A DNA stretch of 37,300 nucleotides from a virus. Lineage: Duplodnaviria > Heunggongvirae > Uroviricota > Caudoviricetes. The stretch is taken from the IMG/VR virus record IMGVR_UViG_2925908680_000006, one strand, 5' to 3'. Position 1 is the first letter of the stretch, and every line of letters begins with the position of its first letter. Positions 5,756 to 33,467 of the stretch are shown here, piece by piece. The notes beneath the pieces are model-generated. The model searched no databases. It saw only the letters and a program-made list of their open reading frames with translations, and was not told the DNA's origin. Made by a program: the position numbers and the translations under genes.

Positions 5756-8549
5756 TATCCGGGTCGCTTTCAGCGCCGTTGACAGGCTGACCCGACCTGC
5801 CGAAAACGCACGCCGCCTGATGGGGCAGTTTGGTGACTCCATCCAGCGAACGCAGGGGGCGATCAAAAATCTCGAGCGTCAGGCGCGTTCATTTGAGCGC
5901 GCCCGCGACGCTGTCAGTAAAGCGGATGCGGGTATCGTGAAAGCACGACGCCAGCTTAACGCCCTTAATCAGTTACAACGCACGGGTACAGTGCTCAGCG
6001 AAAAACAACAAAAGCTGATGCAGCAGTTAAGCACCCGGCTTGAACGCCTGAATGAATCGCGCACACGGGAAATTCAGAAAATGCGGGAGCTTGGCGGAGA
6101 GCTGAAACGCCACGGCATTTCCCTGACAGGCAGCGATAACACCATCCAGCAGGCCATCAGACGCACCGAACAGTACAACAACCAGCTTGAACGCGAACGG
6201 CAGGCGCTTGCGCGTGTAACGCGGGCGCGTGAGCGGTATTCGCGCGCGCAGGAAACAGCGGGAAAACTGAAAACAGGTGGTGCGCTGGCAATTGGTGCGG
6301 CAGCGGCGGGCGGCTATGCTGCCGGGCGTTTTTTGCAGCCTGCGATCGGGTTCGGGAAAGAGATGTCCCGCGTTCAGGCACTGACGCGAATCGACAAAAA
6401 CAGCCCGCAGTTTAAGGCGCTGCGTGAGCAGGCGTTAAAACTTGGCTCTGAAACGCAGTTCACCGCAGGCGATGCCGCCAGTGGGCAGGCATTTCTTGCA
6501 ATGGCTGGCTTCACACCGCAGGCCATTCAGGCTGCGCTTCCGGGCGTGCTGAGCATGGCAACGGCTGGCGGTATGGACCTTGGCGAGACGGCGGATATTG
6601 GCTCAAATATCCTGACGCAGTTCGGCCTCTCCGCTGACCAGATGGACCGGGTCGGTGACACGCTTACAGCAGCGTTTACCCGTACTAACACTGACCTTCG
6701 CGCGCTGGGCGAAACCATGAAATATGCAGGTCCGGTGGCGGGTAAGCTGGGAATATCGCTGGAGCAGGCCGCAGCGATGGCGGGCGTGCTGGCGAATATG
6801 GGTATCAGAGGGAGTGATGCCGGGACGGCAATGCGTGCCAGCCTGGCTCGTCTGGCATCACCGCCAAAGGCGGCAGCAGAGGCGCTGAAAGAGCTTGGCG
6901 TGTCTGTCTCGGATGCCGGGGGCAAAATGCGCCCGATGGAGGATGTGCTGGCTGACCTTTATAAAGCTACCCGCAAATACGGGGAAGTTGACCGGGTATC
7001 GTTCTTTAAGGACATTGCCGGAGAAGAGGCTTTCACATCATTTATGGCCCTCGTTGATGCGGCAGGTGACGGCTCCTTACCCAAACTGAGAAAAGAACTT
7101 GAAGGCGCGCGCGGTGAGGCTGAACGCACGGCAAAGGTTATGGCCAACAACCTTGACGGCGATCTGAAATCACTCAGCAGTGCATGGGAAGGGTTGCGCA
7201 TCCGCATTGCAGATCTGATTGACGGTCCGCTGCGTTCTGTCACGCAGTGGCTCACGCGTGTGGTATCAAAGGTGACGGCGCTGGCGCAGGCCCATCCCGC
7301 ACTGACGCGCCAGCTACTGATTGCAGGCGGCGCACTGCTGGCAATGACTGCAACGGTTGGCTCGTTGTCGCTGGCTATTGGTGTGCTTGCTGGCCCGCTG
7401 ACAAAACTGCGTCTTGGTTTTTCCCTCCTGACCGGATCAATGAATGCTGTCAGGGTTCTGCCAGCACTATGGGGAATGGTGACGGGTTCCGTTTCTTTAC
7501 TGGGAGGCGCTATCGGGGCGTTGTTCAGTCCGGTTGGTCTTATCGTGGCTGCGCTTGCCGGAGCTGCCGTTCTTATCTGGAAATACTGGGATCCCATCAG
7601 GGCATTTTTTGCCGGGGTGTTCAGCGGGATTATGGAAAGGCTGACCCCGTTGCGCGAAACCTTTGAACGGTTTGGTCCTGTTTTTGACGCAATCGGGAGT
7701 GGGATCAGCCAGGTGTTTAACTGGTTTAAATCGCTGCTGTCACCGATGGAGTCCAGCAAGGAAACGCTGGATAAATGTACCAGTGCTGGCGAGATATTCG
7801 GTAACGTTCTTGGCGGTGCGTTACAACTTGTTCTGACACCTGCAAAAATGTTGCTGGATACGCTGGCGTGGATACTTGAAAAGCTCGGTGTGCTTCCGGA
7901 TGAAGCGGAAAGGGCGCGCAAGAAAATCGAAGACGCACAGCGTGCGGCCATTCTTCAGGACAAGGTTGCCTTGCTTCAGGGGGACCTGGCGAAAATCAAT
8001 CCGCCGAAGCCTGTGGAAAATGGCAATGGCACCGGAGGTGATAAACCCAAAGACAACAAACCGCTCACAGACAGCAATACCGGTACGCTACGCAGACTCA
8101 GCAAAATTGCTGATAACACAGGTAAGCTGGTTGATGAGACGAAAAAACGTATTGGCCCCGGCGATATTGTCTTTAAGAACCTGCCCCGCGCACTTGCCGT
8201 TCGTGGGGAGTGGCAGGAGCGGAAGATTGCGCAGGTCAGTAAGCCTGCCCCCGCAATTAATATCACACCTGTGGTTCCGGCTCCGCTGCCTCCGGCGCTG
8301 GTCCCTGTTGTTGCGGCCAGCTCCCGCCCGGTGGCAGAGGCCATACGATCGCCAGTGGCATCAGTTCCTGCAACTTCCCGTAACCGGGAGCCTGTTGCCT
8401 GCGGATTTGGCGGTGAAATTCATGTTCATCTGCATAACGTTGTTACACAGAATCCCCGCGAACTGGCGAAACTGGTCGGTGAAATGGTCAGGGCAGAAAT
8501 GGAACGGCGCGCCCGTGCCGGGCGTGGCAGTTTTTACGATAAAGATTGA
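5733..8549 (+). CDS. T: Tail tape-measure protein T
   Basis: About 938 aa; coiled-coil N-terminus, Gly/Ala-rich hydrophobic middle; position after E/E'. Confidence 0.9.
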   Translation: MQTMKTLDIRVAFSAVDRLTRPAENARRLMGQFGDSIQRTQGAIKNLERQARSFERARDAVSKADAGIVKARRQLNALNQLQRTGTVLSEKQQKLMQQLSTRLERLNESRTREIQKMRELGGELKRHGISLTGSDNTIQQAIRRTEQYNNQLERERQALARVTRARERYSRAQETAGKLKTGGALAIGAAAAGGYAAGRFLQPAIGFGKEMSRVQALTRIDKNSPQFKALREQALKLGSETQFTAGDAASGQAFLAMAGFTPQAIQAALPGVLSMATAGGMDLGETADIGSNILTQFGLSADQMDRVGDTLTAAFTRTNTDLRALGETMKYAGPVAGKLGISLEQAAAMAGVLANMGIRGSDAGTAMRASLARLASPPKAAAEALKELGVSVSDAGGKMRPMEDVLADLYKATRKYGEVDRVSFFKDIAGEEAFTSFMALVDAAGDGSLPKLRKELEGARGEAERTAKVMANNLDGDLKSLSSAWEGLRIRIADLIDGPLRSVTQWLTRVVSKVTALAQAHPALTRQLLIAGGALLAMTATVGSLSLAIGVLAGPLTKLRLGFSLLTGSMNAVRVLPALWGMVTGSVSLLGGAIGALFSPVGLIVAALAGAAVLIWKYWDPIRAFFAGVFSGIMERLTPLRETFERFGPVFDAIGSGISQVFNWFKSLLSPMESSKETLDKCTSAGEIFGNVLGGALQLVLTPAKMLLDTLAWILEKLGVLPDEAERARKKIEDAQRAAILQDKVALLQGDLAKINPPKPVENGNGTGGDKPKDNKPLTDSNTGTLRRLSKIADNTGKLVDETKKRIGPGDIVFKNLPRALAVRGEWQERKIAQVSKPAPAINITPVVPAPLPPALVPVVAASSRPVAEAIRSPVASVPATSRNREPVACGFGGEIHVHLHNVVTQNPRELAKLVGEMVRAEMERRARAGRGSFYDKD

Positions 8550-9054: not shown

Positions 9055-9100
9055 ACACAAAAACCGCTAATGGTCAGATTAGCGGTTATTTTGTTTTCTG
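9055..9100. terminator. Bidirectional terminator between convergent U and invertase genes
   Basis: Perfect 10-bp stem aaccgctaat / attagcggtt (9062-9087) flanked by A/T tracts on both sides. Confidence 0.7.
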
Positions 9101-9673
9101 ACTCTTCTCTATTGTTCCGCTTGATTCTCCTGCGGGGTGGTAACGATAAATCGTCGATGTACCAATGCCGTAAATTATTGCCAGTTGTTTTCTGTCGTGA
9201 CCGTTTTTAATCAGCCTTGCTATTTGCTCATGCTGTTCTTTTGTCAGCTTCGGGCGACGTCCGCCTGTGCGCCCCCGTGCGCGCGCTGCTGCCAGTCCGG
9301 CCAGTGTACGTTCAACAATTAATTCACGTTCCATTTCAGCCAGGGCACCCATCACGTGGAAGAAAAAACGCCCCATTGGAGAAGATGTATCTATGCTGTC
9401 GGTCAGACTGCGAAAATTAATCCCTCGCTCCCGTAGTTCCCCGACGAGAGAAATCAGATGTTTCATGCTTCGCCCGAGGCGATCCAGTTTCCAGACAACC
9501 AGCGTGTCACCTTTTTGAAGGCGCTTTAAAGCGCGTTTTAATCCCGGTCGGTCTGTCTTTGTCCCGCTTAATTTATCTTCAAATATTTGTTCACATCCTG
9601 CACAAACAAGAGCGTTTCGTTGCAGGTCTGTATTCTGGTCATTTGTTGATACCCTTACATAGCCAATCAGCAC
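9086..9673 (-). CDS. gin: Serine DNA invertase (Gin/Hin/Pin/Cin family)
   Basis: LIGYVRVSTNDQNTDLQRNAL...GDTLVVWKLDRLGRSMKHL is near-identical to remembered Mu Gin; likely GTG start at 9673; C-terminal HTH. Confidence 0.93.
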   Translation of the reverse strand: MLIGYVRVSTNDQNTDLQRNALVCAGCEQIFEDKLSGTKTDRPGLKRALKRLQKGDTLVVWKLDRLGRSMKHLISLVGELRERGINFRSLTDSIDTSSPMGRFFFHVMGALAEMERELIVERTLAGLAAARARGRTGGRRPKLTKEQHEQIARLIKNGHDRKQLAIIYGIGTSTIYRYHPAGESSGTIEKSQKTK

Positions 9674-9727
9674 GCTGAATCTCCCGTCCAAAAGCGTAAA
9701 TCATGCCATGCAGGTCAGAAACGGCCA

Positions 9728-14734: not shown

Positions 14735-15623
14735 TGCGCCCACCTTCGCTGATGGTGAACGACTCACAGCGCGCCGCCTGTATGTCGCTGATGGCCATAT
14801 TCTGTGTGGGTTCGATTATCTCCACGCGTTGCACACCGTGCACATGCAGTGCGGCAGCAATGGCGGACAACGCCACGTCCTGACCGATAAGCCCCTGCTC
14901 AGCCAGCCACTTCCTGAACGACGATTCAGCCGCCGCCAGAATAGGTTCGGATTCCGGGCCGGGGTAAAAGTACAGTTTTGCATTCAGCCGCCATGTCACG
15001 ATTCTGGCGCTCTGTACAGTAAGGCGGTCGGCCACCGGGCGGGTATCCTCTGCATTCAGAACGGCGCGAACGGTATTAAGCAACGCCTCCGTTGCTGTGC
15101 CGTCGCCTTCAGTGGACAGGATGGAAACCGTCACATTTGCCGGAGACGGACTGATAGCCCGCGCATCACGCACCAGACCGCTGGCGCTGCGGGCAAAATA
15201 CTCGTATGCACCTGACGGGCCAGCAACACTCAGGCCATCGTACGCCCGCTGCGCCCGCAGTCTCAGCGAGGTGTCACTTTCCATCACTGCGTCGGTGGTA
15301 TCCGTTGCCGGAGTGATGGTCAGGCGCTTTGTGTTCATATTGCCCGCGAGGTTGTCCAGGTCTGTCCCGGCGCTGTGGCTTAACATGCAGGCGCGTGCCC
15401 CCTCATTGACCCGCTGGCGTAACAGCATTTCACGAAACGCTGTTGTCTGGGCGATAACGTTCAGGGGTTCCGATTCCAGCTCCAGCGCGGCGGAGACGGC
15501 TTCACGCTGTTCGGCGGGATAAGCCGCAATCATCATGGCCTTTGTGTCAGCCAGAATTGCCTCAAAGTCAGGCTCCGCGATGATGGCGGGTTCCGGTAAC
15601 TGGGAAAGGTCAACGGCGGGCAT
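14727..15623 (-). CDS. J: Baseplate assembly protein J
   Basis: 298 aa; size and position as P2 gpJ. Confidence 0.85.
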   Translation of the reverse strand: MPAVDLSQLPEPAIIAEPDFEAILADTKAMMIAAYPAEQREAVSAALELESEPLNVIAQTTAFREMLLRQRVNEGARACMLSHSAGTDLDNLAGNMNTKRLTITPATDTTDAVMESDTSLRLRAQRAYDGLSVAGPSGAYEYFARSASGLVRDARAISPSPANVTVSILSTEGDGTATEALLNTVRAVLNAEDTRPVADRLTVQSARIVTWRLNAKLYFYPGPESEPILAAAESSFRKWLAEQGLIGQDVALSAIAAALHVHGVQRVEIIEPTQNMAISDIQAARCESFTISEGGRNE

Positions 15624-15626
15624 GAT

Positions 15627-15977
15627 TTACTCCCTCAGCGTGATGGTTAACTCAACATTCTGCATGGTCTGCATGACAGTGCCCGACAGCGTCACCCCGG
15701 CGCGGCCTCCCGCTTTCCAGACAACGTCGATGGCATCCAGGGCAATGCGGGGTTCCCATCGTGTCAGCGCAATCACGGCAGCACTCATGCATTGCAGACG
15801 CGTGGTGTTATTCATGGGTTCGTCAATCAAATCAGGCACAAGGCTGCCATATTCCCGTCGCATAACCCGGCTTGCCAGCGGGGTGGTCAGGATATCCCTG
15901 ACTGACTGTTTCAGGTGCTCCATATCGTTCAGGTTTCCCGTCCCGTCCGGATTCATTCCTGTGTAGCGGGTTGTCAC
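15627..15977 (-). CDS. W: Baseplate protein W (gp25/GPW family)
   Basis: 116 aa; conserved position between V and J. Confidence 0.85.
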   Translation of the reverse strand: MTTRYTGMNPDGTGNLNDMEHLKQSVRDILTTPLASRVMRREYGSLVPDLIDEPMNNTTRLQCMSAAVIALTRWEPRIALDAIDVVWKAGGRAGVTLSGTVMQTMQNVELTITLRE

Positions 15978-16555
15978 TGCGGGCCTCCTGTCGAATCGCT
16001 GCCGCCTTTCACGCCACCGTGTTTATGCGTATGCACGGTAATGCCGTTTGAGGTGAAGTTGCCGCCGCTGTGCGTGATATTGCCGCTCATCTTTCCTCCT
16101 TTTGTGACGTCAAGCGTCGCCGTTCTCAGAAGGTTTGTGCATTCCACGACGGGCGTGTCCAGTTTCACGCTGACGGATGCCTGTAAAGTGGCCGTTTTCA
16201 TGCCGCTGGCGCTCAGTGCGCCTGCGTCCGCGTCGTAGCGGAACACCGCGCCGTCCGGCGCGCTGATCACGATTTCTTTCAGGCTTTTGCCGGGGGCCGG
16301 ACTGGCATCACTCCACAGGCTGCCAATTATCATGGCGGTTTCCGGGTTGCCGCCAATGCAGGCAATTACTACCTGTTCGCCTGGTGATGGCGGCAGCCAC
16401 ACATTGAAGGCTCCCGCGCGCGTGGTGTTCCAGCGCAGCCAGCCTGTTTCCAGTTCGCCGCTGCGAACGCGCACGCGCCAGGACTTCTCATCAACTTCAG
16501 AGATGATCCCGGTGCGGATGATATTGCTCAGCAGTCGCATGAGTTCTGCGCTCAC
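15974..16555 (-). CDS. V: Baseplate spike protein V
   Basis: 193 aa with Gly-rich C-terminus; position as P2 gpV. Confidence 0.8.
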   Translation of the reverse strand: MSAELMRLLSNIIRTGIISEVDEKSWRVRVRSGELETGWLRWNTTRAGAFNVWLPPSPGEQVVIACIGGNPETAMIIGSLWSDASPAPGKSLKEIVISAPDGAVFRYDADAGALSASGMKTATLQASVSVKLDTPVVECTNLLRTATLDVTKGGKMSGNITHSGGNFTSNGITVHTHKHGGVKGGSDSTGGPQ

Positions 16556-17187
16556 CGTACAGCCTCCGCAATCCGGCCCAGCACCGTGTTATAAATCAGG
16601 CGCTCATCTGCCTGGCTGATACCCAGCAGCTCACGTACCGGGTAATCGGTGAAAATGCCCGGCGCAACCTGATCGCGCTCACCGAACTGATGAACGCGGG
16701 CAATACGTGCGGCCACGCCGCTGTAACCCACCGTCACACCGGAAGCATCTGCACGGGCTTTCAGGTAGCGGGCGGTGCGCAGTTTTACGAACATGGGGAC
16801 GCGCTTTGTGCTGTCCTGGTTGATGCGCCGGGTGCGTATTTCCAGAAAACGGTCGATGTCATCCCGGTAAAACGTGCGGATATTGTTTTTATCCTCATCC
16901 CACCCGGTAATGGTTCGCCCGTATTTCCCCGTGTCGTGATGCCAGTTTTTCAGCGTGCGTGCTTCGTTATTCCAGATAAAGCGAATGCGTTCCTGTATCC
17001 GGGTTACGCGGCGTCTGCGTGGTGTCCACGCGGTCCCGTCCGGCGCTTTCTGTGACCGGATACGCGCCTGCTGGGCGCGGCGTAAATCCTGTGCCAGCTT
17101 TCTGGCGATGTTATTGATGGCCTGCTGATTCAGGCTGTCGCGGATGGCCTCAAAGGTTTCATCCACGCGGGTGAATGCCTTATCCAT
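16552..17187 (-). CDS. S: Phage virion morphogenesis / tail completion protein (S position)
   Basis: About 211 aa, between R and V as in P2; sequence assignment is weaker than for its neighbours. Confidence 0.6.
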   Translation of the reverse strand: MDKAFTRVDETFEAIRDSLNQQAINNIARKLAQDLRRAQQARIRSQKAPDGTAWTPRRRRVTRIQERIRFIWNNEARTLKNWHHDTGKYGRTITGWDEDKNNIRTFYRDDIDRFLEIRTRRINQDSTKRVPMFVKLRTARYLKARADASGVTVGYSGVAARIARVHQFGERDQVAPGIFTDYPVRELLGISQADERLIYNTVLGRIAEAVR

Positions 17188-26437: not shown

Positions 26438-27024
26438 TGGTTGCCTCCTTTGTGTTGCGTCAGCTCTTCCTGCGCCTGCATCATGCGATTGACCTGAACG
26501 CGTGTGCGTCGAACGGCAAAATTAAATTGAAACATGAGCCGGAACATTTCTGAGGCTTCCGTGTGAACATCATGGAGAGGTGACAGGCGGTACAGTTCTG
26601 CCTCCGTAGCTTGTTGAATCAATGACAGATCAAATTGAAGTGCGGGTCTGGTACATTTTGCACATCTGGCAGCAAGCTCCGGCATCAGTTTCTTAACGAA
26701 GGTGTTTTGCACCGCTTTGTTGAGTTGTGTCTGCATCCAAATCGCAAATTTCAGCGAACGCATAAGTTTGATAGCCTCGGGCAGCGGCAGATAGATCATG
26801 CTGGTAGATTTGGGTGGTTGGTGAATCATCTTCACGGATACGCGATTTCGCAGCGTTCGGAAAATCGTGTTCCCAACAACAGCTTCTACGGATACAGGAC
26901 AGGGAGCCAGACCAGCCCGCAGTGCTTCTTTCATTAGCATGTATTCGTATTTTTTCATCGTGTTTTCCTCGTGCGGGGGGAGACAGTGCGCCCCGATAAA
27001 ATTAAAAGCCGTCAAATTCGTCAT
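26434..27024 (-). CDS. Hypothetical protein (no recognised domain)
   Basis: 196 aa ORF, possibly starting at the internal MKKYEY (26958); middle gene of the accessory operon. Confidence 0.55.
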
Positions 27025-27356
27025 TCATGCGTTTTTTCTTCATGGTCTGTCACTTCTCTTCTGATAATTTCATTGCACAAATCCACGCACTCATTGCAGA
27101 TGTAAACAGACGGTCCGGCAATCACCTTTATGACTTCGTGCTGGGATTTATTGCAGAAGCTGCAATAAATCGTCTTCTTGCCTGAAGTCCATGTTTTGCT
27201 GATTTCGCCAGACATCAGTTGCTTGATGTCTTTTTCACGACGAAGAACTATCTGGCCACATTCAGCTATTTTTTGGATGTTGACATTTTCTTCTTTCGCC
27301 AGCGCTTCCATTCGCTCAATCAGTCGCTGCGCTTTTTCTCTGTCAATGTGTTGCAT
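27021..27356 (-). CDS. Small protein with C-terminal ClpX-type C4 zinc-binding domain
   Basis: 111 aa; [39 protein letters not shown] is near-identical to the remembered ClpX N-terminal zinc-binding domain; helical N-terminus; AAGGGGGA SD. Confidence 0.8.
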
Positions 27357-27419
27357 TGTGTCCCCCTTGTTTATGTTCCCGGATTAAAGTCATCAGGGCG
27401 GATGCGCCCTGATGTTGTG

Positions 27420-27731
27420 TTATTCGGGAAATAACGCCCGGATATTTCCGGCCATCTGACTGGTTATCTGTGCGGTTGATACTGGCTGTGACGCGGGGCA
27501 TTCTGTCCTGGTTTGTGTCACTGATAACGCCTCATCGTCAGCCCATGCAGCCAGTCGGTAAGCCTCTGCCGGATTCATTTTCAGAAGTGCCAGCCCGGCC
27601 AGAAAAGCCACGCGTTGGCCGCTTTTGCGGGCTTCTGGTGTAAGGCTGTCCAGCCAGGCGCATGCTTCGCTTTCGTTCTTGACGGCCGCAGGCTTCAGAT
27701 AGAAACTTATCCGTCTGGTTGGTGTCGTCAT
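27420..27731 (-). CDS. parR: ParR-like centromere-binding protein
   Basis: 103 aa from ATG at 27731; ISFYLKP...RVAFLAGLAL...NIRALFPE parallels remembered plasmid R1 ParR; directly downstream of parM. Confidence 0.7.
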   Translation of the reverse strand: MTTPTRRISFYLKPAAVKNESEACAWLDSLTPEARKSGQRVAFLAGLALLKMNPAEAYRLAAWADDEALSVTQTRTECPASQPVSTAQITSQMAGNIRALFPE

Positions 27732-27735
27732 TGGT

Positions 27736-28695
27736 TTACTCCTTGTCCATTGCGTACAGCCCATTAACCAGAGCAAACTGTGGCACCCCGTCCGCGATGA
27801 AAGTCGCATTAACTCCGCAGGCTTCGCGGATAGCGGGTGCCACAATCTCCGCCCCTCCACCGACAACCATCACCCGCCCGTAACCCGAAAAACCCGCCAG
27901 CGCGCGGATCACGCGTTGTTTCAGTGTTTCTTCCTTTTCACGAATAACCTCCATCAGGCTGGCGTAATGCGCGTCATTGTGGATGTGCTGGCGCAGCCAG
28001 GCTTCATTATGGCGATGTTCGATAATGGTATTGGCGATGTGGTGACTGGTGCGCATACCGTTAGTGGCCATCACCGACAGTACGGCATCGGCCATCAGAG
28101 AAACGCCTACGTGTGGATCGCAAAACACCTGGCTGATACCTGCCAGTTGCCCCTGAACCTTTGCCACATCCAGCGTGGTTCCGCCCAAATCTACAATCAG
28201 CAGGGATTCAAACGGACTCATGTCAGCCAGTGCCTTAAAGCCAGCCGGAATGGATTCAGGCATAACCCGCACGTTACGGATAGTGAATGCTTCGCCGTTC
28301 TGGTACTCCACCGGGCGCATAACGTTCGCTTTTTTGCGGTTGATGTTGGCCATGTCCGGCTGTGCGTTTGTGTCGAAATACTCGCTCAGTGGCAGGGTGA
28401 CAACCACATCCACCTCCTGTGGCGTGATGCCTGATTTGACCAGCGCGTGATGAATGGCAATGACATTCACATCGCTGTACTGGTATTGCGTGTCGGTCGT
28501 CTGGACAAAGCGATCGCTGACCGGATCAAAACCATAGCGCACGCCATCAAGCATGTAGTTCGCGGGCTGCGTGCCACCAAACGGCGCAGACCATTCCGAC
28601 TTGAAGCTGTTCGGGCTGATGGCGTTGCGGCGTTCGCCGTTCTCAGTCCATGCCAGCTTGATGTTGGTGGAGCCGTCGTCGATACAAATTTTCAT
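27736..28695 (-). CDS. parM: ParM/StbA-like actin-type segregation ATPase
   Basis: 319 aa; IDDGSTNIKL, ISPNSF, YSDVNV.A.HHAL, VMPESIPAG, DLGGTTLD, VGGGAE are strongly similar to remembered R1 ParM. Confidence 0.9.
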   Translation of the reverse strand: MKICIDDGSTNIKLAWTENGERRNAISPNSFKSEWSAPFGGTQPANYMLDGVRYGFDPVSDRFVQTTDTQYQYSDVNVIAIHHALVKSGITPQEVDVVVTLPLSEYFDTNAQPDMANINRKKANVMRPVEYQNGEAFTIRNVRVMPESIPAGFKALADMSPFESLLIVDLGGTTLDVAKVQGQLAGISQVFCDPHVGVSLMADAVLSVMATNGMRTSHHIANTIIEHRHNEAWLRQHIHNDAHYASLMEVIREKEETLKQRVIRALAGFSGYGRVMVVGGGAEIVAPAIREACGVNATFIADGVPQFALVNGLYAMDKE

Positions 28696-28726
28696 GTCGC
28701 TTTTCCTTATGTTGATTAATTAATCG

Positions 28727-28838
28727 TTTACGGGATTCTAAAATCCCGTTTTTGCCTGTTTTGTGCGCGCTTCATATATCGCTGCGCGTTTTTTGCTCAT
28801 TTACGGGATTCGTGAGTCCCGTTTCTGTCTGTTTTTTG
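28727..28838. repeat. Two related palindromic repeats upstream of parM (parC-like candidate)
   Basis: tttacgggatt-ctaa-aatcccgt at 28727-28750 and tttacggga-ttcgtgag-tcccgt at 28800-28822, each followed by a T-rich ctgttttt segment; the second lies inside the 3' end of gene A. Confidence 0.5.
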
Positions 28839-31594
28839 TTTCCACTGGTCAGGCCACCCCGCAGCAGGTCTGCTTTGCGGCGGGCGCGTTCAGTGGTTTC
28901 ACTGATTCTCTGTGCGTGCTCTGCGTCGCGGATGGCGCGCAGCATGTCAGAAAGCACGGTAACGGGTGTTTTCATGGTGTTCTGGTCCTGCTGAAGTGTG
29001 GATGCCAGGCGTGCGGCGGCTTCAGGGTCTGATGCCCCCAGCTGTGCCAGATAGCTGGCGACCGGGTTATGGCGGATCTCCGTGCTGCTTACGCCGTGAT
29101 TACGGCTCAGGCGCTGCCAGAGCTGCGTGATTCGGCTGTCCGGGCGGGTATCCGGTTTGCGTACAATTTCAAATCCCTGCGGTGCAATGATGCTGCCGTC
29201 AACGTACAGACTGCCGCCCCGTAACAGGTGCTGCATCTGTTGTTCACCGATATGCAGGCCGAGAGATTCAGCAGACTCCCGCCATTCTTTAGCGAGTAAC
29301 TCGTGGTTATCAGGCAAAGGCCGCGGCTGTTTGCGGCTCTGTGTCCAGTTCTGCATTTCATCACTGTTGTTTTTTGCCTGTTTGTCACGCAGCGAACGCA
29401 TCAGCGCCCGGCGTTCGTGCCGTTTCAGTGAGTGCAGCCATTCGTTCACTTCAACACCGTCAGGGATCTGCGGCCACGGTGCTGGCCGTTCTTCCGGCTG
29501 TTCTGTCCCGTTGTTGTCCGTTTCCTGTACACGGGGACAGTTATTGCCACGAGTCCAAGGGGCGGCAGGGCCGCCCTGAAGGTCAAAACCATTTTCGCGG
29601 GCGCTGTCTTCCGCTTCCGGTTTACGTCTTACCAGCTTCCAGTTATCCGGGTGCGTGCACACGCGGGAAGACTCCCCGATGAGCGGCGACCAGATCCCGT
29701 AAATCTGTACACTCTGCTCGCCGTAATCGTTCAGCTCATCTGCGAGGTCGTAGGCGGTGCGAATCAGGTAGTCTTTACGTGGAACAAGTACGCCGCCCTG
29801 TTTTTCAATGTAGGAGGCAAAACACCCGGCATCAGCGGCAGCGAGTACCGCATCCATTGCATCATCCTTCAGCCGTTGCGGGCCTTCCGGGTTGCGTGCC
29901 ATCTGACAGGCAAGGCGGCGGAGTTCACGCCATACCTGACGGGAGGGGATGCCAAAGAACTGGAACTGGCGGACCCGATGAAGACGCGCCCAGCCAATGG
30001 CGCGCTCCACGCTCTCGGCCATTGATTTTCCGGTTTCGTGGTCAACGCGTGGCTTGCCCGTTTTCGGGTCGATGCCATCCACGGCGCGGCTGTCCAGGTT
30101 TTTTCCGATGTAGGTCGCGATATAGCTGGTTGGTGTGCCTTTTGAGCCGTCGACATACTCCGCCTTAAAGCGCGGAGTAATATCATCGCCCAGTTCGTGA
30201 CGATCTTCCTGAATGGCAATATCGCGGGTGATGGCCACGATGCTGTCGATTTCTTCCGGATGAGCAAAGACCATCATATGCCAGTGCACGGTGCCGTCAT
30301 GGTGAGGCTCCACCGTGCGGATGCCATACCAGCGCAGGCCGTCGCGGTTCAGTTTTTTGCGGACCGCCGCAAAAAACGTGTTAACCAGGTAATCGCTGGA
30401 GTCGCGCATGGTGGCCCCGTTCCATTTGGGGTTCGGATGACCGTTCTCCGTTGTTGCGTGGTATTTTGACGGGCAGGTGACAGTCAGAAACACCGCTTTG
30501 TCACCACGGGCTTCGGCCAGAAGTTCCAGCCCCTTCATGGTGGCCATCATTTCTGCCTTACGGTGAACCGGGTTACTTACTCCCGCGTAATACACTGTCT
30601 CGAGATCAATCGTGAACCCGTCTTCATTTTCCAGCATGAAACTTTTCAGGAAATCGCGTGTTTTCTCGCGCTGTGCGCGAAACTCGCTTAACGCGTCCTG
30701 GCTCAGATAGGGCGATGTTTTTCTGGAAACCAGACAGGCGGCGCGGAGTTGTTCTTCTCTCCACTCGCAACGTAACAGCCACAGTTTGCGTTTCCACCAT
30801 TCCGCACAGGTCAGGCGAAGGATTGCGCCCGGCAGCAGCTCCGTGTCCGGTTCGTTCCTCCGGTCTTTGTCTGTTGTCAGTGCGTCATAATGTGGAGGCA
30901 TGGCGTGCAGGTGTAACGCCATGCGGGCCAGCATCTGATACGCCTTCAGCGTTACATCCATGGTCAGTTCGCCATCGGTCGCGCCAAAGCCATCGCAGAG
31001 TTTTTCGAAGGTGCTGCTGAACATCGCCGCCGTCATGGTGGCCAGCGTCTGTATCTGGTGTTTGTTGAGCTGCGGCAGGTAAAGCAAATCGTCCAGGCGT
31101 TCGCGTCCGGCAAGGGAGCGATAACCCGGTGTCAGCCAGCGGTGATCGGTGCAGTCCAGACGTTCGAATATTTTGCGCAGGGTTCCGCGCGCGTAGCGTT
31201 CCGCCTGCCAGCTCTTTTTGCCTTTCTGACGATCGGCTTCCTGCTTCTTGCGCAGGAAGGAGAGGTGGCGAATAAGCGGATCGCGCAGATAGGACGGCAG
31301 CAGGCGCAGCGAGGCCATGGCTTCATCCACCGCGCCGCGTGCCTGTTTTCTGGCGTCTCCTGCCAGTGTGATGGTTTTGTCCTGTTTTTCCTGTGCGTCC
31401 AGGCTTTTATTAATCAGGTTGCCCAGCGGCGTGGCGGAGAACGCCGCATCAGCCATTTCCTGGCGGCGCTCGTTCTCTACCCGGTAGGCATCCAGCCAGG
31501 AGGAAAGCGCGGATTCAGGAGCGGGGATCTCCGTTCCTTCACGCCCCACTGCGTGGCGCGGTTGTTGCCAGTCCCTGATGTACTCTGCCGTCAT
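28772..31594 (-). CDS. A: Rolling-circle replication initiation endonuclease A
   Basis: 940 aa; HUH-type VHWHMMVF motif and the Y-containing TSYIATYIGKN segment as in the P2/186 A family. Confidence 0.88.
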   Translation of the reverse strand: MTAEYIRDWQQPRHAVGREGTEIPAPESALSSWLDAYRVENERRQEMADAAFSATPLGNLINKSLDAQEKQDKTITLAGDARKQARGAVDEAMASLRLLPSYLRDPLIRHLSFLRKKQEADRQKGKKSWQAERYARGTLRKIFERLDCTDHRWLTPGYRSLAGRERLDDLLYLPQLNKHQIQTLATMTAAMFSSTFEKLCDGFGATDGELTMDVTLKAYQMLARMALHLHAMPPHYDALTTDKDRRNEPDTELLPGAILRLTCAEWWKRKLWLLRCEWREEQLRAACLVSRKTSPYLSQDALSEFRAQREKTRDFLKSFMLENEDGFTIDLETVYYAGVSNPVHRKAEMMATMKGLELLAEARGDKAVFLTVTCPSKYHATTENGHPNPKWNGATMRDSSDYLVNTFFAAVRKKLNRDGLRWYGIRTVEPHHDGTVHWHMMVFAHPEEIDSIVAITRDIAIQEDRHELGDDITPRFKAEYVDGSKGTPTSYIATYIGKNLDSRAVDGIDPKTGKPRVDHETGKSMAESVERAIGWARLHRVRQFQFFGIPSRQVWRELRRLACQMARNPEGPQRLKDDAMDAVLAAADAGCFASYIEKQGGVLVPRKDYLIRTAYDLADELNDYGEQSVQIYGIWSPLIGESSRVCTHPDNWKLVRRKPEAEDSARENGFDLQGGPAAPWTRGNNCPRVQETDNNGTEQPEERPAPWPQIPDGVEVNEWLHSLKRHERRALMRSLRDKQAKNNSDEMQNWTQSRKQPRPLPDNHELLAKEWRESAESLGLHIGEQQMQHLLRGGSLYVDGSIIAPQGFEIVRKPDTRPDSRITQLWQRLSRNHGVSSTEIRHNPVASYLAQLGASDPEAAARLASTLQQDQNTMKTPVTVLSDMLRAIRDAEHAQRISETTERARRKADLLRGGLTSGNKKQTETGLTNPVNEQKTRSDI

Positions 31595-31600
31595 AGTGAT

Positions 31601-31966
31601 TTACTTCGTCATGCCATTCAGGGTGTCGCGGCAGACTGTAGCCAGCCTCTGAATTTCCAGCACGGTGTCTTCTGTGTCGGCATGGCGATGTGTGATGCGG
31701 ATGCTGTCGGCAATCACATCGACGATTGCAGAGGATGGGCGCTGGTAAATGCCAATAACGTACGGGGTGCCACCTTCAATGCGGTAAAGCCTGTAATTTC
31801 CCTCGTGGCTGTCAATCATGTAGCGACCATCAATAACAATCTTTCCGTCAGCGAGCTGCGGTACAGGCAGGGATTTCAGGTACATGTCATAACGTTCACG
31901 CACGCGAACGGCAAGATCACGCTCTGTGTTGAGCAGGTATTCAAGAAAGTCGTTGGCGAGAATCAT
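31601..31966 (-). CDS. Hypothetical early protein
   Basis: 121 aa ORF ending 6 nt before the A start. Confidence 0.55.
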   Translation of the reverse strand: MILANDFLEYLLNTERDLAVRVRERYDMYLKSLPVPQLADGKIVIDGRYMIDSHEGNYRLYRIEGGTPYVIGIYQRPSSAIVDVIADSIRITHRHADTEDTVLEIQRLATVCRDTLNGMTK

Positions 31967-32038
31967 TGCGGCAATCCTCTGGTTACAGATGTGCGAAGGC
32001 CTCCCGCCGCAAGGTGCAGGAAAGGCCCGGAACAGGAA

Positions 32039-32269
32039 TTAATGGAGTTTGTTTTGCTGCTGGATGAGCTGTTGAAGCTCGCGCAGATCATCCGCCAGAT
32101 AGCTGAAAACAGCGGATGAATAGAGGTTTGAAAGTTCGCAGCTACGCTCATGCAGCATATTGATGTGCATGATTTTAGCGACGCGGAATGCGCGGGAAAG
32201 TCTGCGGTTGATTTCAGTCTGGATGTGACGACGCTCCGCGATAGTGCGGTGCTGTTTGCGGTTTGCCAT
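32039..32269 (-). CDS. Hypothetical small basic protein
   Basis: 76 aa ORF downstream of the structured intergenic region. Confidence 0.5.
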   Translation of the reverse strand: MANRKQHRTIAERRHIQTEINRRLSRAFRVAKIMHINMLHERSCELSNLYSSAVFSYLADDLRELQQLIQQQNKLH

Positions 32270-32280
32270 GATATGTGGCC

Positions 32281-32500
32281 TCTTGTAGTAAGTTGTGAAA
32301 ACTCACCATCCAGAGCTGCGAAACTGTGGGTGGCGAGACGTACGAGGTTCGCAGTACCGGCTACAAGAGATCCCGGCCCGACCGAAGTCGGCCCCGTACG
32401 CCCCGCCATAATTCTGACGCGAAAAAAACGTGGCAATACAGTACGCACAAAAAAACCGCTGGCGCGGTTGTGCGCTCTTGTAGTCAGCAGGCTGCGAAAC
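32281..32500. promoter_or_regulatory. Intergenic region with three copies of a bipartite motif (ctcttgtag ... ctgcgaa), the middle copy inverted
   Basis: ctcttgtag at 32281 and 32474, ctacaagag at 32364; gctgcgaaac at 32315 and 32490, gttcgcag at 32347. Confidence 0.4.
32447..32469 (-). terminator. Candidate rho-independent terminator (minus strand)
   Basis: aaccgc-tggc-gcggtt hairpin with a run of 7-8 T immediately downstream on the minus strand. Confidence 0.4.
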
Positions 32501-32605
32501 CCGGCACCCGTTTTATGAGGTGCAGCGAAAATGTAACCTGACTGATTGCGGCATGGCAAGCGGTTTTTTTGTGAGAACGGCATACTAAAAAATCCTGATA
32601 CTGCT

Positions 32606-32630
32606 CCGGCCAGCGGTTTGCACTGGCCGG
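32606..32630 (-). terminator. Stem-loop just downstream of the SPFH gene
   Basis: ccggccag / ctggccgg 8-bp GC stem starting 7 nt after the stop; T-run is displaced. Confidence 0.4.
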
Positions 32631-32636
32631 GTGTCA

Positions 32637-33467
32637 TTACTTCACGGGAACGAACGGAACAGCGGTGTTACTGGTCATGTATTGCGGCAGCGTGCCGTTC
32701 CATTTGTTGATCGCTTCCAGCTCCATAACGCCGGGATTCTGGCGCAGAGCTTCACCGCGTAAACGAATGGCGTCGGCTTCAGCCTGGGCTTTTGTGCGAA
32801 TGGCATCAGCCTGTCCGGCAGCTTCTGCGCGCAACATGTTGGCTTCTGCTTCGCGTTGCTTGACTTCCTGTTCGCGTTGCAGGGTTTTCTGGTTTGCCGT
32901 GACTTTGGCGTTAATGCTGTCGATAACGGTTGGCGGATATTCCGGTTTACCGACATAAGAGAGGCTCATGACCTGAATACCGATGGGGGTCATCTCTTCC
33001 TGAATATCTTTAAGTGCTGAATCCAGCAGTTCAGACTTACCACCGTCGATAAACTTATCGGTGGTCATTTTGCTGGCCAGTCGGTTGAGTGCATCGGCGA
33101 TCTTCTGGCGCAGGTCAGTGTCGGTAATGTCGTCCACGCCTTTGCGGTAGGTCTGAAACACCGTGGTAACTTTGGATGGATCAACTTTGTAGGCCACGCC
33201 GATGTGATAGCCGATGGTTGTGCCGTCACTCATCTGGAAGCTGAACGGCTCATCGTAAGTCTTCATTTGTTTGAAGGTCGGGAAGATGTAAACCTCTGTA
33301 TTCCAGCCTGTCCAGTAGCGGCCAACGCCAACTACTTCGCCGACGCCTTTGTCGTCGCCCAGTTTGTTGACTTTGATGCCCACATTACCTGGCTCAACGC
33401 GATCGCAACCAACCAGCAGGATGGCGGCAAAAAGCGGGAGAATCTGAAATAGTCTGAATTTCTTCAT
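32637..33467 (-). CDS. SPFH/band-7 (prohibitin-like) family lipoprotein
   Basis: 276 aa; lipoprotein signal MKKFRLFQILPLFAAILLVGC; C-terminal Ala/Glu-rich coiled-coil typical of SPFH proteins. Confidence 0.7.
   Translation of the reverse strand: MKKFRLFQILPLFAAILLVGCDRVEPGNVGIKVNKLGDDKGVGEVVGVGRYWTGWNTEVYIFPTFKQMKTYDEPFSFQMSDGTTIGYHIGVAYKVDPSKVTTVFQTYRKGVDDITDTDLRQKIADALNRLASKMTTDKFIDGGKSELLDSALKDIQEEMTPIGIQVMSLSYVGKPEYPPTVIDSINAKVTANQKTLQREQEVKQREAEANMLRAEAAGQADAIRTKAQAEADAIRLRGEALRQNPGVMELEAINKWNGTLPQYMTSNTAVPFVPVK

Follow-up and report, generated by a model that had tools for sequence, protein, structure and literature searches.

The closest described relatives of the cassette treated here are the type II partition systems ParMRC of the low-copy plasmids R1 and R100 (StbA/StbB/parC), in which parC, parM and parR follow one another in that order. 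In R1, parC is built of 2 x 5 direct 11-bp A/C-rich iterons, and in R100 of two clusters of A/C-rich 11-bp iterons offset by ~105 bp. We analyzed a parM-parR gene pair, together with two palindromic repeats upstream of parM, in a 37,300-nucleotide stretch of viral DNA (IMG/VR record IMGVR_UViG_2925908680_000006; the whole stretch is called the window below). The window was found to be a P88-like phage (Xuanwuvirus, Peduoviridae), and its par region is 98% identical to those of Escherichia phage P88 and other Xuanwuvirus phages. Repeats, parM and parR stand in the same order as in R1 and R100, but their carrier is an integrating P2-like phage and not a low-copy plasmid.

Phages provide further comparisons. 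In the integrated prophage CGP3 of Corynebacterium glutamicum, an actin-like ATPase, AlpC, is likewise encoded with a co-transcribed DNA-binding adaptor, AlpA, the whole system being named AlpAC/alpS (PMC4446434, PMC5539076). It is switched on early when the prophage excises, couples circular phage DNA to filaments and is required for the phage to replicate efficiently, and AlpA binds upstream of its own operon (PMC4446434). AlpAC/alpS is the best functional analogy for our locus, although it differs in protein family (AlpA is not a PF10784 protein, and the ALP_N profile scores 25.8 bits on the phage ParM, below its cut-off of 26.3), in host phylum and in phage type. The P1-like phage-plasmid D6 carries plasmid partition genes of the ParM type, its ParM being 47.5% identical to that of the window, and the Arsenophonus element paNv_UK11 combines ParA-type partition genes with a P2-type virion module. 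Unlike the window phage, which has an integrase and no RepA-type gene, both possess a dedicated plasmid replicon, and paNv_UK11 is without an integrase.

The cassette itself has also been recorded. In their analysis of the gpA-gpQ interval of Escherichia coli P2-like phages, Rousset et al. 2022 (PMC9122126) pointed it out together with the idea of plasmid maintenance, and their supplementary tables list "StbA + Plasmid_stab_B" arrangements, which are the same cassette at the same locus. There it is one of many arrangements of a hotspot; here it emerges as a fixed module at the gene A edge, and its upstream repeats are described. We favor, at about even confidence, the reading that it is an intact type II (R1-type) ParMRC module of one P2-like clade that would act on extrachromosomal circles of phage DNA.

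An R1-family ParM-ParR pair

Gene A, parM and parR follow one another in that order on the minus strand within 27420-31594 of the window.

27736-28695, minus strand: parM, actin-like segregation ATPase, 319 aa (StbA_N, 1.8e-82; ParM C-terminal domain, 3.7e-68)
27420-27731, minus strand: parR, adaptor/centromere-binding protein, 103 aa (Plasmid_stab_B, PF10784, 1.8e-24), translationally coupled to parM
28772-31594, minus strand: gene A, replication endonuclease, 940 aa (Phage_GPA, 3.3e-131), the upstream neighbor, outside the par module

Judged by family profiles and sequence comparison, the identification of ParM and ParR as a genuine R1-family pair is secure. The Pfam scores of ParM for StbA_N and the ParM C-terminal domain are far above their cut-offs, and a phmmer comparison with the R1 ParM structure chains (1mwk) gave E=8e-93 over residues 2-316, that is, the full length. 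ParM is 47% identical to R100 ParM over 318 aa and has the same nucleotide-binding and hydrolysis motifs as R1 and R100 ParM, namely DDGSTNIK (phosphate-1), the PESIPAG glutamate, DLGGTTLD (phosphate-2) and GGGAE (adenosine), all of them invariant in 11 aligned prophage ParMs. In the PHROGs database, ParM falls in family 691, "partition protein", and ParR in family 2515. The PF10784 score of ParR is 85.8 bits against a cut-off of 25. Its start is the ATG at 27731, 4 nt past the parM stop and preceded by an AAGGAG Shine-Dalgarno sequence; the mechanical list of open reading frames (ORFs) had run it to a TTG at 27866 inside parM.

ParR is homologous to R100 ParR, with 35% identity in the N-terminal 55 aa. 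Across nine aligned ParRs, from prophages, an integrative and conjugative element (ICE) and R100, the N-terminal strand-helix-helix and the C-terminal tail are conserved. The N-terminal strand, RRISFYLKP, is invariant, and the linker (residues 64-93) is hypervariable. All prophage ParRs carry a C-terminal N-(I/A)-x-x-L-F-P that aligns, at the level of sequence, with the ...KKNAMKLIN of R100 ParR, N96 being invariant. In R1, the ParR C terminus is reported to be the ParM-binding peptide.

A sequence-only reading of the window had placed here parM, parR and two palindromes with shared arms, the second overlapping the 3' end of gene A, and every one of these elements was confirmed at its position. 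Its further statement, that gene A of a P2-like phage is directly followed by genes for a full-length ParM/StbA-like ATPase and a ParR, is borne out by Pfam, by the match to R1 ParM and by gene order.

Among related P88-like loci, parM is intact (319 aa) in 83 of 83 and evolves under strong purifying selection, with a ratio of nonsynonymous to synonymous divergence (dN/dS) of 0.054; for parR the ratio is 0.24-0.29. The 80 IMG/VR loci that enter these selection statistics were, however, the best matches, a choice that favors intact copies.

One prophage lineage and the edge of the module

A contig search with the single ParM protein returned 3 near-identical loci only, and among the 80 loci kept from a profile scan of IMG/VR there were only relatives of 98-100% identity. 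Distant relatives came from a search for homologous proteins, followed by tracing of the contigs that encode them. There is a gap in identity: P88-like ParMs are >91% identical, and the next relatives only 54-62%. The latter come from Hafnia, Plesiomonas, Serratia and Enterobacter. All belong to P2-like prophages, where they occupy the interval from gpA to the portal gene and are followed by a PF10784 gene. A Dickeya relative (48%) is located in an ICE, and plasmid ParMs are at most 52% identical to the prophage ParM. In a neighbor-joining tree (without bootstrap), all verified P2-prophage ParMs form one clade of their own, apart from that of R1 and the other sequences.

The opposite edge of the module can be located from the points at which similarity ends among the 83 P88-like loci. 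The commonest such point is a hairpin directly downstream of parR.

27391-27414, no strand assigned: hairpin with a 10-bp stem and 7 G-C pairs, a terminator-like match directly downstream of parR, distal edge of the conserved par module

Similarity ends at 27391-27394, within this hairpin, in 27 loci, at 27417-27424, the parR stop, in 16 and inside parR in 23. Since the largest number of end-points falls on it, the hairpin may be both a terminator and a recombination boundary of the hotspot. The parR gene itself is mosaic: ParR alleles of E. coli prophages range continuously from 97% to 42% identity around an invariant N-terminal strand and C-terminal tail, with break-points at 27508-27677, while the adjacent parM stays >91% identical. 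Thus, from where similarity ends, parM and the repeats are fixed, the 3' part of parR is mosaic, and variable hotspot cargo begins after parR.

This pattern bears on whether the cassette is itself hotspot cargo that serves the lysogen. In that case it would be expressed from the prophage and act in trans, either through incompatibility, excluding or destabilizing plasmids or phages that enter with a cognate parC, or as a defense system of an unrecognized kind. The gpA-gpQ interval is a documented hotspot of defense and accessory genes (PMC9122126, PMC13586616), in the phiSM paper the gene counts among the "fitness" factors (PMC6456863), and the mosaic parR with its fast-evolving linker would fit such a role. 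However, parM and the repeats are constant, unlike true cargo, and the variable part starts only after parR; the module has been inherited vertically and keeps its position in different genera, and PADLOC recognized neither ParM nor ParR nor any of the three proteins encoded downstream. Cross-reaction with a plasmid parC is also unlikely because the identity to plasmid ParMs, the nearest included, never exceeds 52%. We therefore regard a cargo role as distinctly improbable. On sequence comparison, the best explanation of the cassette appears to be a stable, lineage-specific module at the gene A edge of the gpA-gpQ hotspot, that is, an old phage module.

Two repeats upstream of parM

Upstream of parM are two direct repeats of 42 nt, 81% identical and spaced by 73 nt, each containing a 20-bp dyad.

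28696-28723, minus strand: parM leader, with an ATTAAT(T/C)AA motif and an AAGGA ribosome-binding site
28724-28765, no strand assigned: proximal 42-bp repeat, candidate ParR site (parC/operator), in the intergenic gap, ending 28 nt ahead of the parM ATG
28730-28749, no strand assigned: proximal dyad, ACGGGATT-N4-AATCCCGT
28766-28796, minus strand: inter-repeat spacer, which holds the gene A stop codon; by analogy with R100 parC, the central region between two iteron clusters
28797-28838, no strand assigned: distal 42-bp repeat, second candidate ParR site, inside the last ~22 codons of gene A
28803-28822, no strand assigned: distal dyad, ACGGGATTC-N2-GAGTCCCGT

The gene A stop codon is at 28772-28774, and the gap between gene A and parM is 76 nt. 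As in R1 and R100, the repeats upstream of parM form two groups around a central region, but they are two 42-bp units with 20-bp dyads 73 bp apart instead of short iterons, and the distal one is embedded in a coding region, that of gene A. The pair is specific to this place in the window. A zero-mismatch ACGGGA-N8-TCCCGT occurs at these two sites only in the 37.3 kb, and the direct-repeat score was never equalled in 300 shuffles. A census of the dyad in IMG/VR gave 78 loci, of which 73 lie beside parM, 3 are interrupted by the end of a contig and 2 are exceptions; hence 73 of the 75 informative occurrences fall within 150 nt of a parM start. The possibility that the dyad also exists away from parM, for instance in satellites that hijack the system, was rejected, since the 2 exceptions are unrelated chance matches in other phages.

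The layout outlasts much of the protein similarity. The best direct repeat upstream of parM is offset by 73 bp in both E. coli and Hafnia and by 72 bp in Plesiomonas, and in Hafnia it ends 28 nt before the parM ATG, as in E. coli. The sole conserved blocks in a three-way alignment of these regions are GGG-N10-CCC at both repeats, the ATTAAT(C/T)AA motif and the ribosome-binding site. The GGG-N10-CCC core and the 72-73 bp spacing are thus kept in Hafnia and Plesiomonas, where ParM is only ~62% identical. The closest plasmid relative that we inspected, pVR50A, has T/G-rich iterons of ~10 bp, and the dyad is absent from it. We considered whether the repeats are instead part of gene A or its origin and rejected this, because in Hafnia and Enterobacter, where further genes come between A and parM, the repeats stay beside parM; they belong to the par module.

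Variation is distributed unevenly over the region. Among 82 related sequences, the arms and flanks of the distal repeat vary least, with a nucleotide diversity (pi) of 0.00-0.03, compared with 0.06 for the spacer and 0.10 for the center of the dyad, a low variation to which the coding constraint on gene A also contributes. The leader at 28696-28723 is the least variable non-coding stretch (pi 0.025), and its ATTAATCAA-like motif and ribosome-binding site are shared by the loci of E. coli, Hafnia and Plesiomonas though the flanks have diverged. This ATTAAT(T/C)AA motif, which lies between the proximal repeat and the ribosome-binding site of parM and is also seen in loci L005 (~7973-7985) and L007 (~6438-6450), might serve as a -10-like element, bind a host factor or act in translation. 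By analogy with R1 parC, a parMR promoter would sit in the spacer at 28766-28796. A scan for consensus sigma-70 promoters over 27300-29000 and the Hafnia and Plesiomonas regions found none, but this negative is uninformative because the same scan is also blank on R100 parC, which has a known promoter. Taken together, the comparative data strengthen the two repeats as good and plausible candidates for the ParR site, or parC.

DNA site or RNA hairpin

The palindromes could alternatively be RNA elements, either intrinsic terminators for antisense (plus-strand) transcription into gene A or stabilizing hairpins in an A-parM mRNA. Both dyads look like terminators on the plus strand, antisense to parM, with T-rich tails, and the predicted folding energy of both E. 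coli dyads is -9 to -10.7 kcal/mol whichever strand is taken (z-scores -2.5 to -3.9). In Serratia, too, palindromes that resemble terminators lie antisense to parM, and a common proximal variant, GCGGGA...TCCTGT, keeps coding-strand pairing through G-U. The two copies, however, share 42 nt including their flanks, more than a hairpin requires, and the window has no upstream plus-strand gene in need of termination. In Hafnia and Plesiomonas, hairpin potential is not significant (z-scores -1 to -2.4) and terminator prediction gave none in these regions, yet both regions retain the GGG-N10-CCC cores at their 72-73 bp spacing. Moreover, the dyad variants among the 82 sequences are one-sided transitions on both strands; compensatory pairs were sought, and none were found. 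An Rfam scan of the par region found nothing.

Because cores and spacing outlast hairpin potential, and because variants arise without compensation, the comparative evidence favors recognition of the dyads at the DNA level, which falls short of proof of ParR binding and allows an additional RNA role. We consider RNA elements an unlikely explanation of the palindromes, though one that is compatible with ParR binding and not mutually exclusive with it. The sequence-only reading had preferred a dimeric protein site to an RNA hairpin because the arms are identical and the spacers different. That argument is weak by itself, since either strand of both dyads can form a hairpin of about -10 kcal/mol; its preference for a protein site gains instead from the conserved core and spacing and from the loss of the hairpin in Hafnia and Plesiomonas.

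Phage circles or plasmid maintenance

Querying 5426 complete E. coli genomes with 1.6 kb of the cassette, we found it in 1308 (24%), and 1454 of its 1456 places are chromosomal. The Prokaryotic Genome Annotation Pipeline (PGAP) calls the products "plasmid segregation protein ParM" and "plasmid partitioning/stability family protein", records of P88 and other Xuanwuvirus phages already name both genes partition proteins, and PHROGs has families for both. Hence a plasmid-type segregation system in a P2-type phage, described as unexpected in the sequence-only reading, is common, named and in print since 2022. The observation and the plasmid hypothesis are already known, and the function is of moderate interest; what is new is the single clade of prophage ParMs, the purifying selection, the GGG-N10-CCC geometry in three lineages and the start of the cargo after parR.

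The window runs from a DNA methylase gene at its left end to the stop codon of the integrase, which is its last base, and none of the complete genomes compared contains an identical stretch. It has no host flanks, and for this reason the phage is called integrated here on the strength of its relatives, with their 1454 of 1456 chromosomal places. One of these relatives, strain ETEC4090, has an identical copy of the cassette within a standard P2-type prophage adjoining dmsA, in the order int, repressor, cox ... A, parM, parR, ClpX zinc-finger gene, cos region, portal, terminase.

Maintenance of a plasmid-prophage, proposed in the sequence-only reading and in print (Rousset et al. 2022, PMC9122126), would offer a low-copy plasmid alternative to integration, for example in hosts without a free attB. 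By family, this is a true partition system of the plasmid type, the phage-plasmid D6 employs a related ParM, 47.5% identical, and a full P88-like genome of 34,461 bp is listed as a circular plasmid in one complete E. coli genome (NZ_CP148288.1). This last record was down-weighted as evidence of an episomal lifestyle, because pENTAS02, a P2-like phage that has an integrase but no par genes, likewise appears in the databases as a circular plasmid, so that such records are independent of ParMR. Integrase, Cox and repressor are retained, and no plasmid replication initiator is annotated in near-identical prophages or in the circular record or was found among the scanned ORFs of the window. The sole replicon of P2 is the gpA-driven rolling circle, in a repressible early operon.

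The Arsenophonus element shows what a true P2-like phage-plasmid looks like. paNv_UK11 (Arsenophonus nasoniae, NZ_CP123572.1) is a 33.5-kb P2-like element with a full virion module that appears to be a genuine P2-like phage-plasmid; at 14747-16766, between the repressor region and ogr, a RepA, a ParA-type AAA ATPase and a ribbon-helix-helix (RHH) protein replace the integrase. Similar 33-36-kb records exist in several Arsenophonus strains. Thus, with the integrase kept, no plasmid replication initiator annotated and nearly all copies chromosomal, a plasmid-like lifestyle of the window phage has little support, and we hold plasmid maintenance to be a fairly unlikely role for the cassette.

We return to the preferred reading, in which the substrate would most likely be the circular phage genome, because the integrase is kept, a plasmid replicon is missing and parMR stands directly behind gene A on the same strand; no coding-strand terminator is predicted between A and parM. 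P2 replicates by a gpA-initiated rolling circle that yields monomeric circles, the packaging substrate. ParR dimers would bind the two 42-bp repeats, whose GGG-N10-CCC cores are 73 bp, or ~seven helical turns, apart, and form a centromere complex. There, ParR would probably also repress a promoter between the repeats. The conserved C-terminal tail of ParR would then capture ATP-ParM filaments, and filament growth would separate DNA molecules that bear the site. The circles in question would be those present after infection or excision, under gene A replication, or those present before integration, and the function would be the dispersal or segregation of phage circles, akin to that of AlpAC/alpS in prophage CGP3. 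Binding of ParR to the repeats, the timing of expression and the life-cycle stage served are what we infer here.

Several observations count against this reading. The proximal dyad is no less polymorphic than neutral or synonymous sites (pi 0.07-0.09 against a synonymous divergence, dS, of 0.08), and no covariation of ParR alleles with dyad variants was found among 82 loci. A Serratia/Enterobacter sub-lineage has another two-repeat layout, with a 93-bp offset and an internal inverted repeat. Because the candidate parC consists of two large repeats and that of R1 of ten 11-bp iterons, the repeat pair may be only an operator. An AlphaFold2 monomer model of ParR, made with a 21-sequence alignment, is of low confidence (mean predicted local distance difference test, pLDDT, 56) and so leaves the RHH fold unconfirmed; it contains only helices 20-29 and 32-52, as expected of a monomer model of an obligate dimer. 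A replication-phase role is more likely than plasmid maintenance, but this preference draws on gene context and analogy only, and the literature yielded no study of what the cassette does in a P2-like phage.

The integrity of parM is also less uniform than the best matches, with their bias, suggest. Truncated clusters exist in the protein database (P0006, P0010 and P0017, of 261, 229 and 188 aa, at 98-99% identity), with 414, 649 and 555 member sequences, some of them on contigs >500 kb, and the parM copy of phage 503458 is frameshifted. They may be clonal frameshift alleles, or a considerable share of the prophage copies, though a minority, may have become pseudogenes. Such forms would be expected if the cassette were a non-functional relic of an old plasmid-phage recombination. 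The low dN/dS and intact reading frame of parM in the P88-like loci, the kept ATPase motifs and the conservation of ParR tail and repeats over the 54-62% divergence range speak against a relic, which we consider highly improbable.

A more far-reaching version of the preferred reading is put forward tentatively, as somewhat doubtful. The cassette would represent an ancient ParM lineage within the replication programme of a large P2-like clade, in which a two-dyad centromere and filaments move or disperse the circles made by gpA and thereby aid replication, packaging or inheritance, in the latent period or before integration.

Other features of the window

Gene A is annotated as a replication endonuclease in relatives. 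Its Phage_GPA domain is restricted to residues 179-503, with a C-terminal region of ~440 aa beyond, and the A proteins of parMR-bearing relatives range from 785 to 912 aa. On the other side of the module, the first cargo gene past parR (27021-27356, minus strand) encodes a 111-aa protein with an N-terminal half of no known kind and, as its only domain, a ClpX-type C4 zinc finger (zf-C4_ClpX, 1.4e-17); its match to the ClpX N terminus in NCBIfam is far under the cut-off. Most of the best E. coli matches have this gene annotated next to the cassette, and its product might be a mimic or titrator of the adaptor/substrate-binding domain of ClpX.

In the early region, two Rfam matches exceed the gathering score: a C4 antisense RNA (81 bits) at 32326-32413 and the Hfq-binding small RNA isrK (67 bits) at 32449-32523, both on the minus strand and both under a spurious 224-aa ORF (31963-32637). 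They suggest an antisense immunity/antirepressor element of the P1/P7 type in a P2-like phage. Also in the early operon, upstream of gene A, is a gene for a 276-aa SPFH/Band 7 domain protein (32637-33467, minus strand; 5.7e-31). A Hin/Gin-type serine recombinase (9086-9691, minus strand; Resolvase, 1.5e-50) adjoins the tail-fiber genes, and relatives have duplicated or partial tail-fiber and assembly genes at that place, which points to an invertible host-range segment.

Significance

About a quarter of complete E. coli genomes hold an actin-type segregation cassette in a P2-like prophage. If the more far-reaching version of the preferred reading is true, this cassette would be an E. coli counterpart of AlpAC of prophage CGP3, and its repeat pair would be a natural "mini-parC" with which to define the minimum number of ParR sites. 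Should it organize phage circles, it would extend a single precedent, AlpAC in Corynebacterium, to the best-studied bacterial host; should it instead enable episomal carriage, it would blur the border between integrating phages and phage-plasmids.

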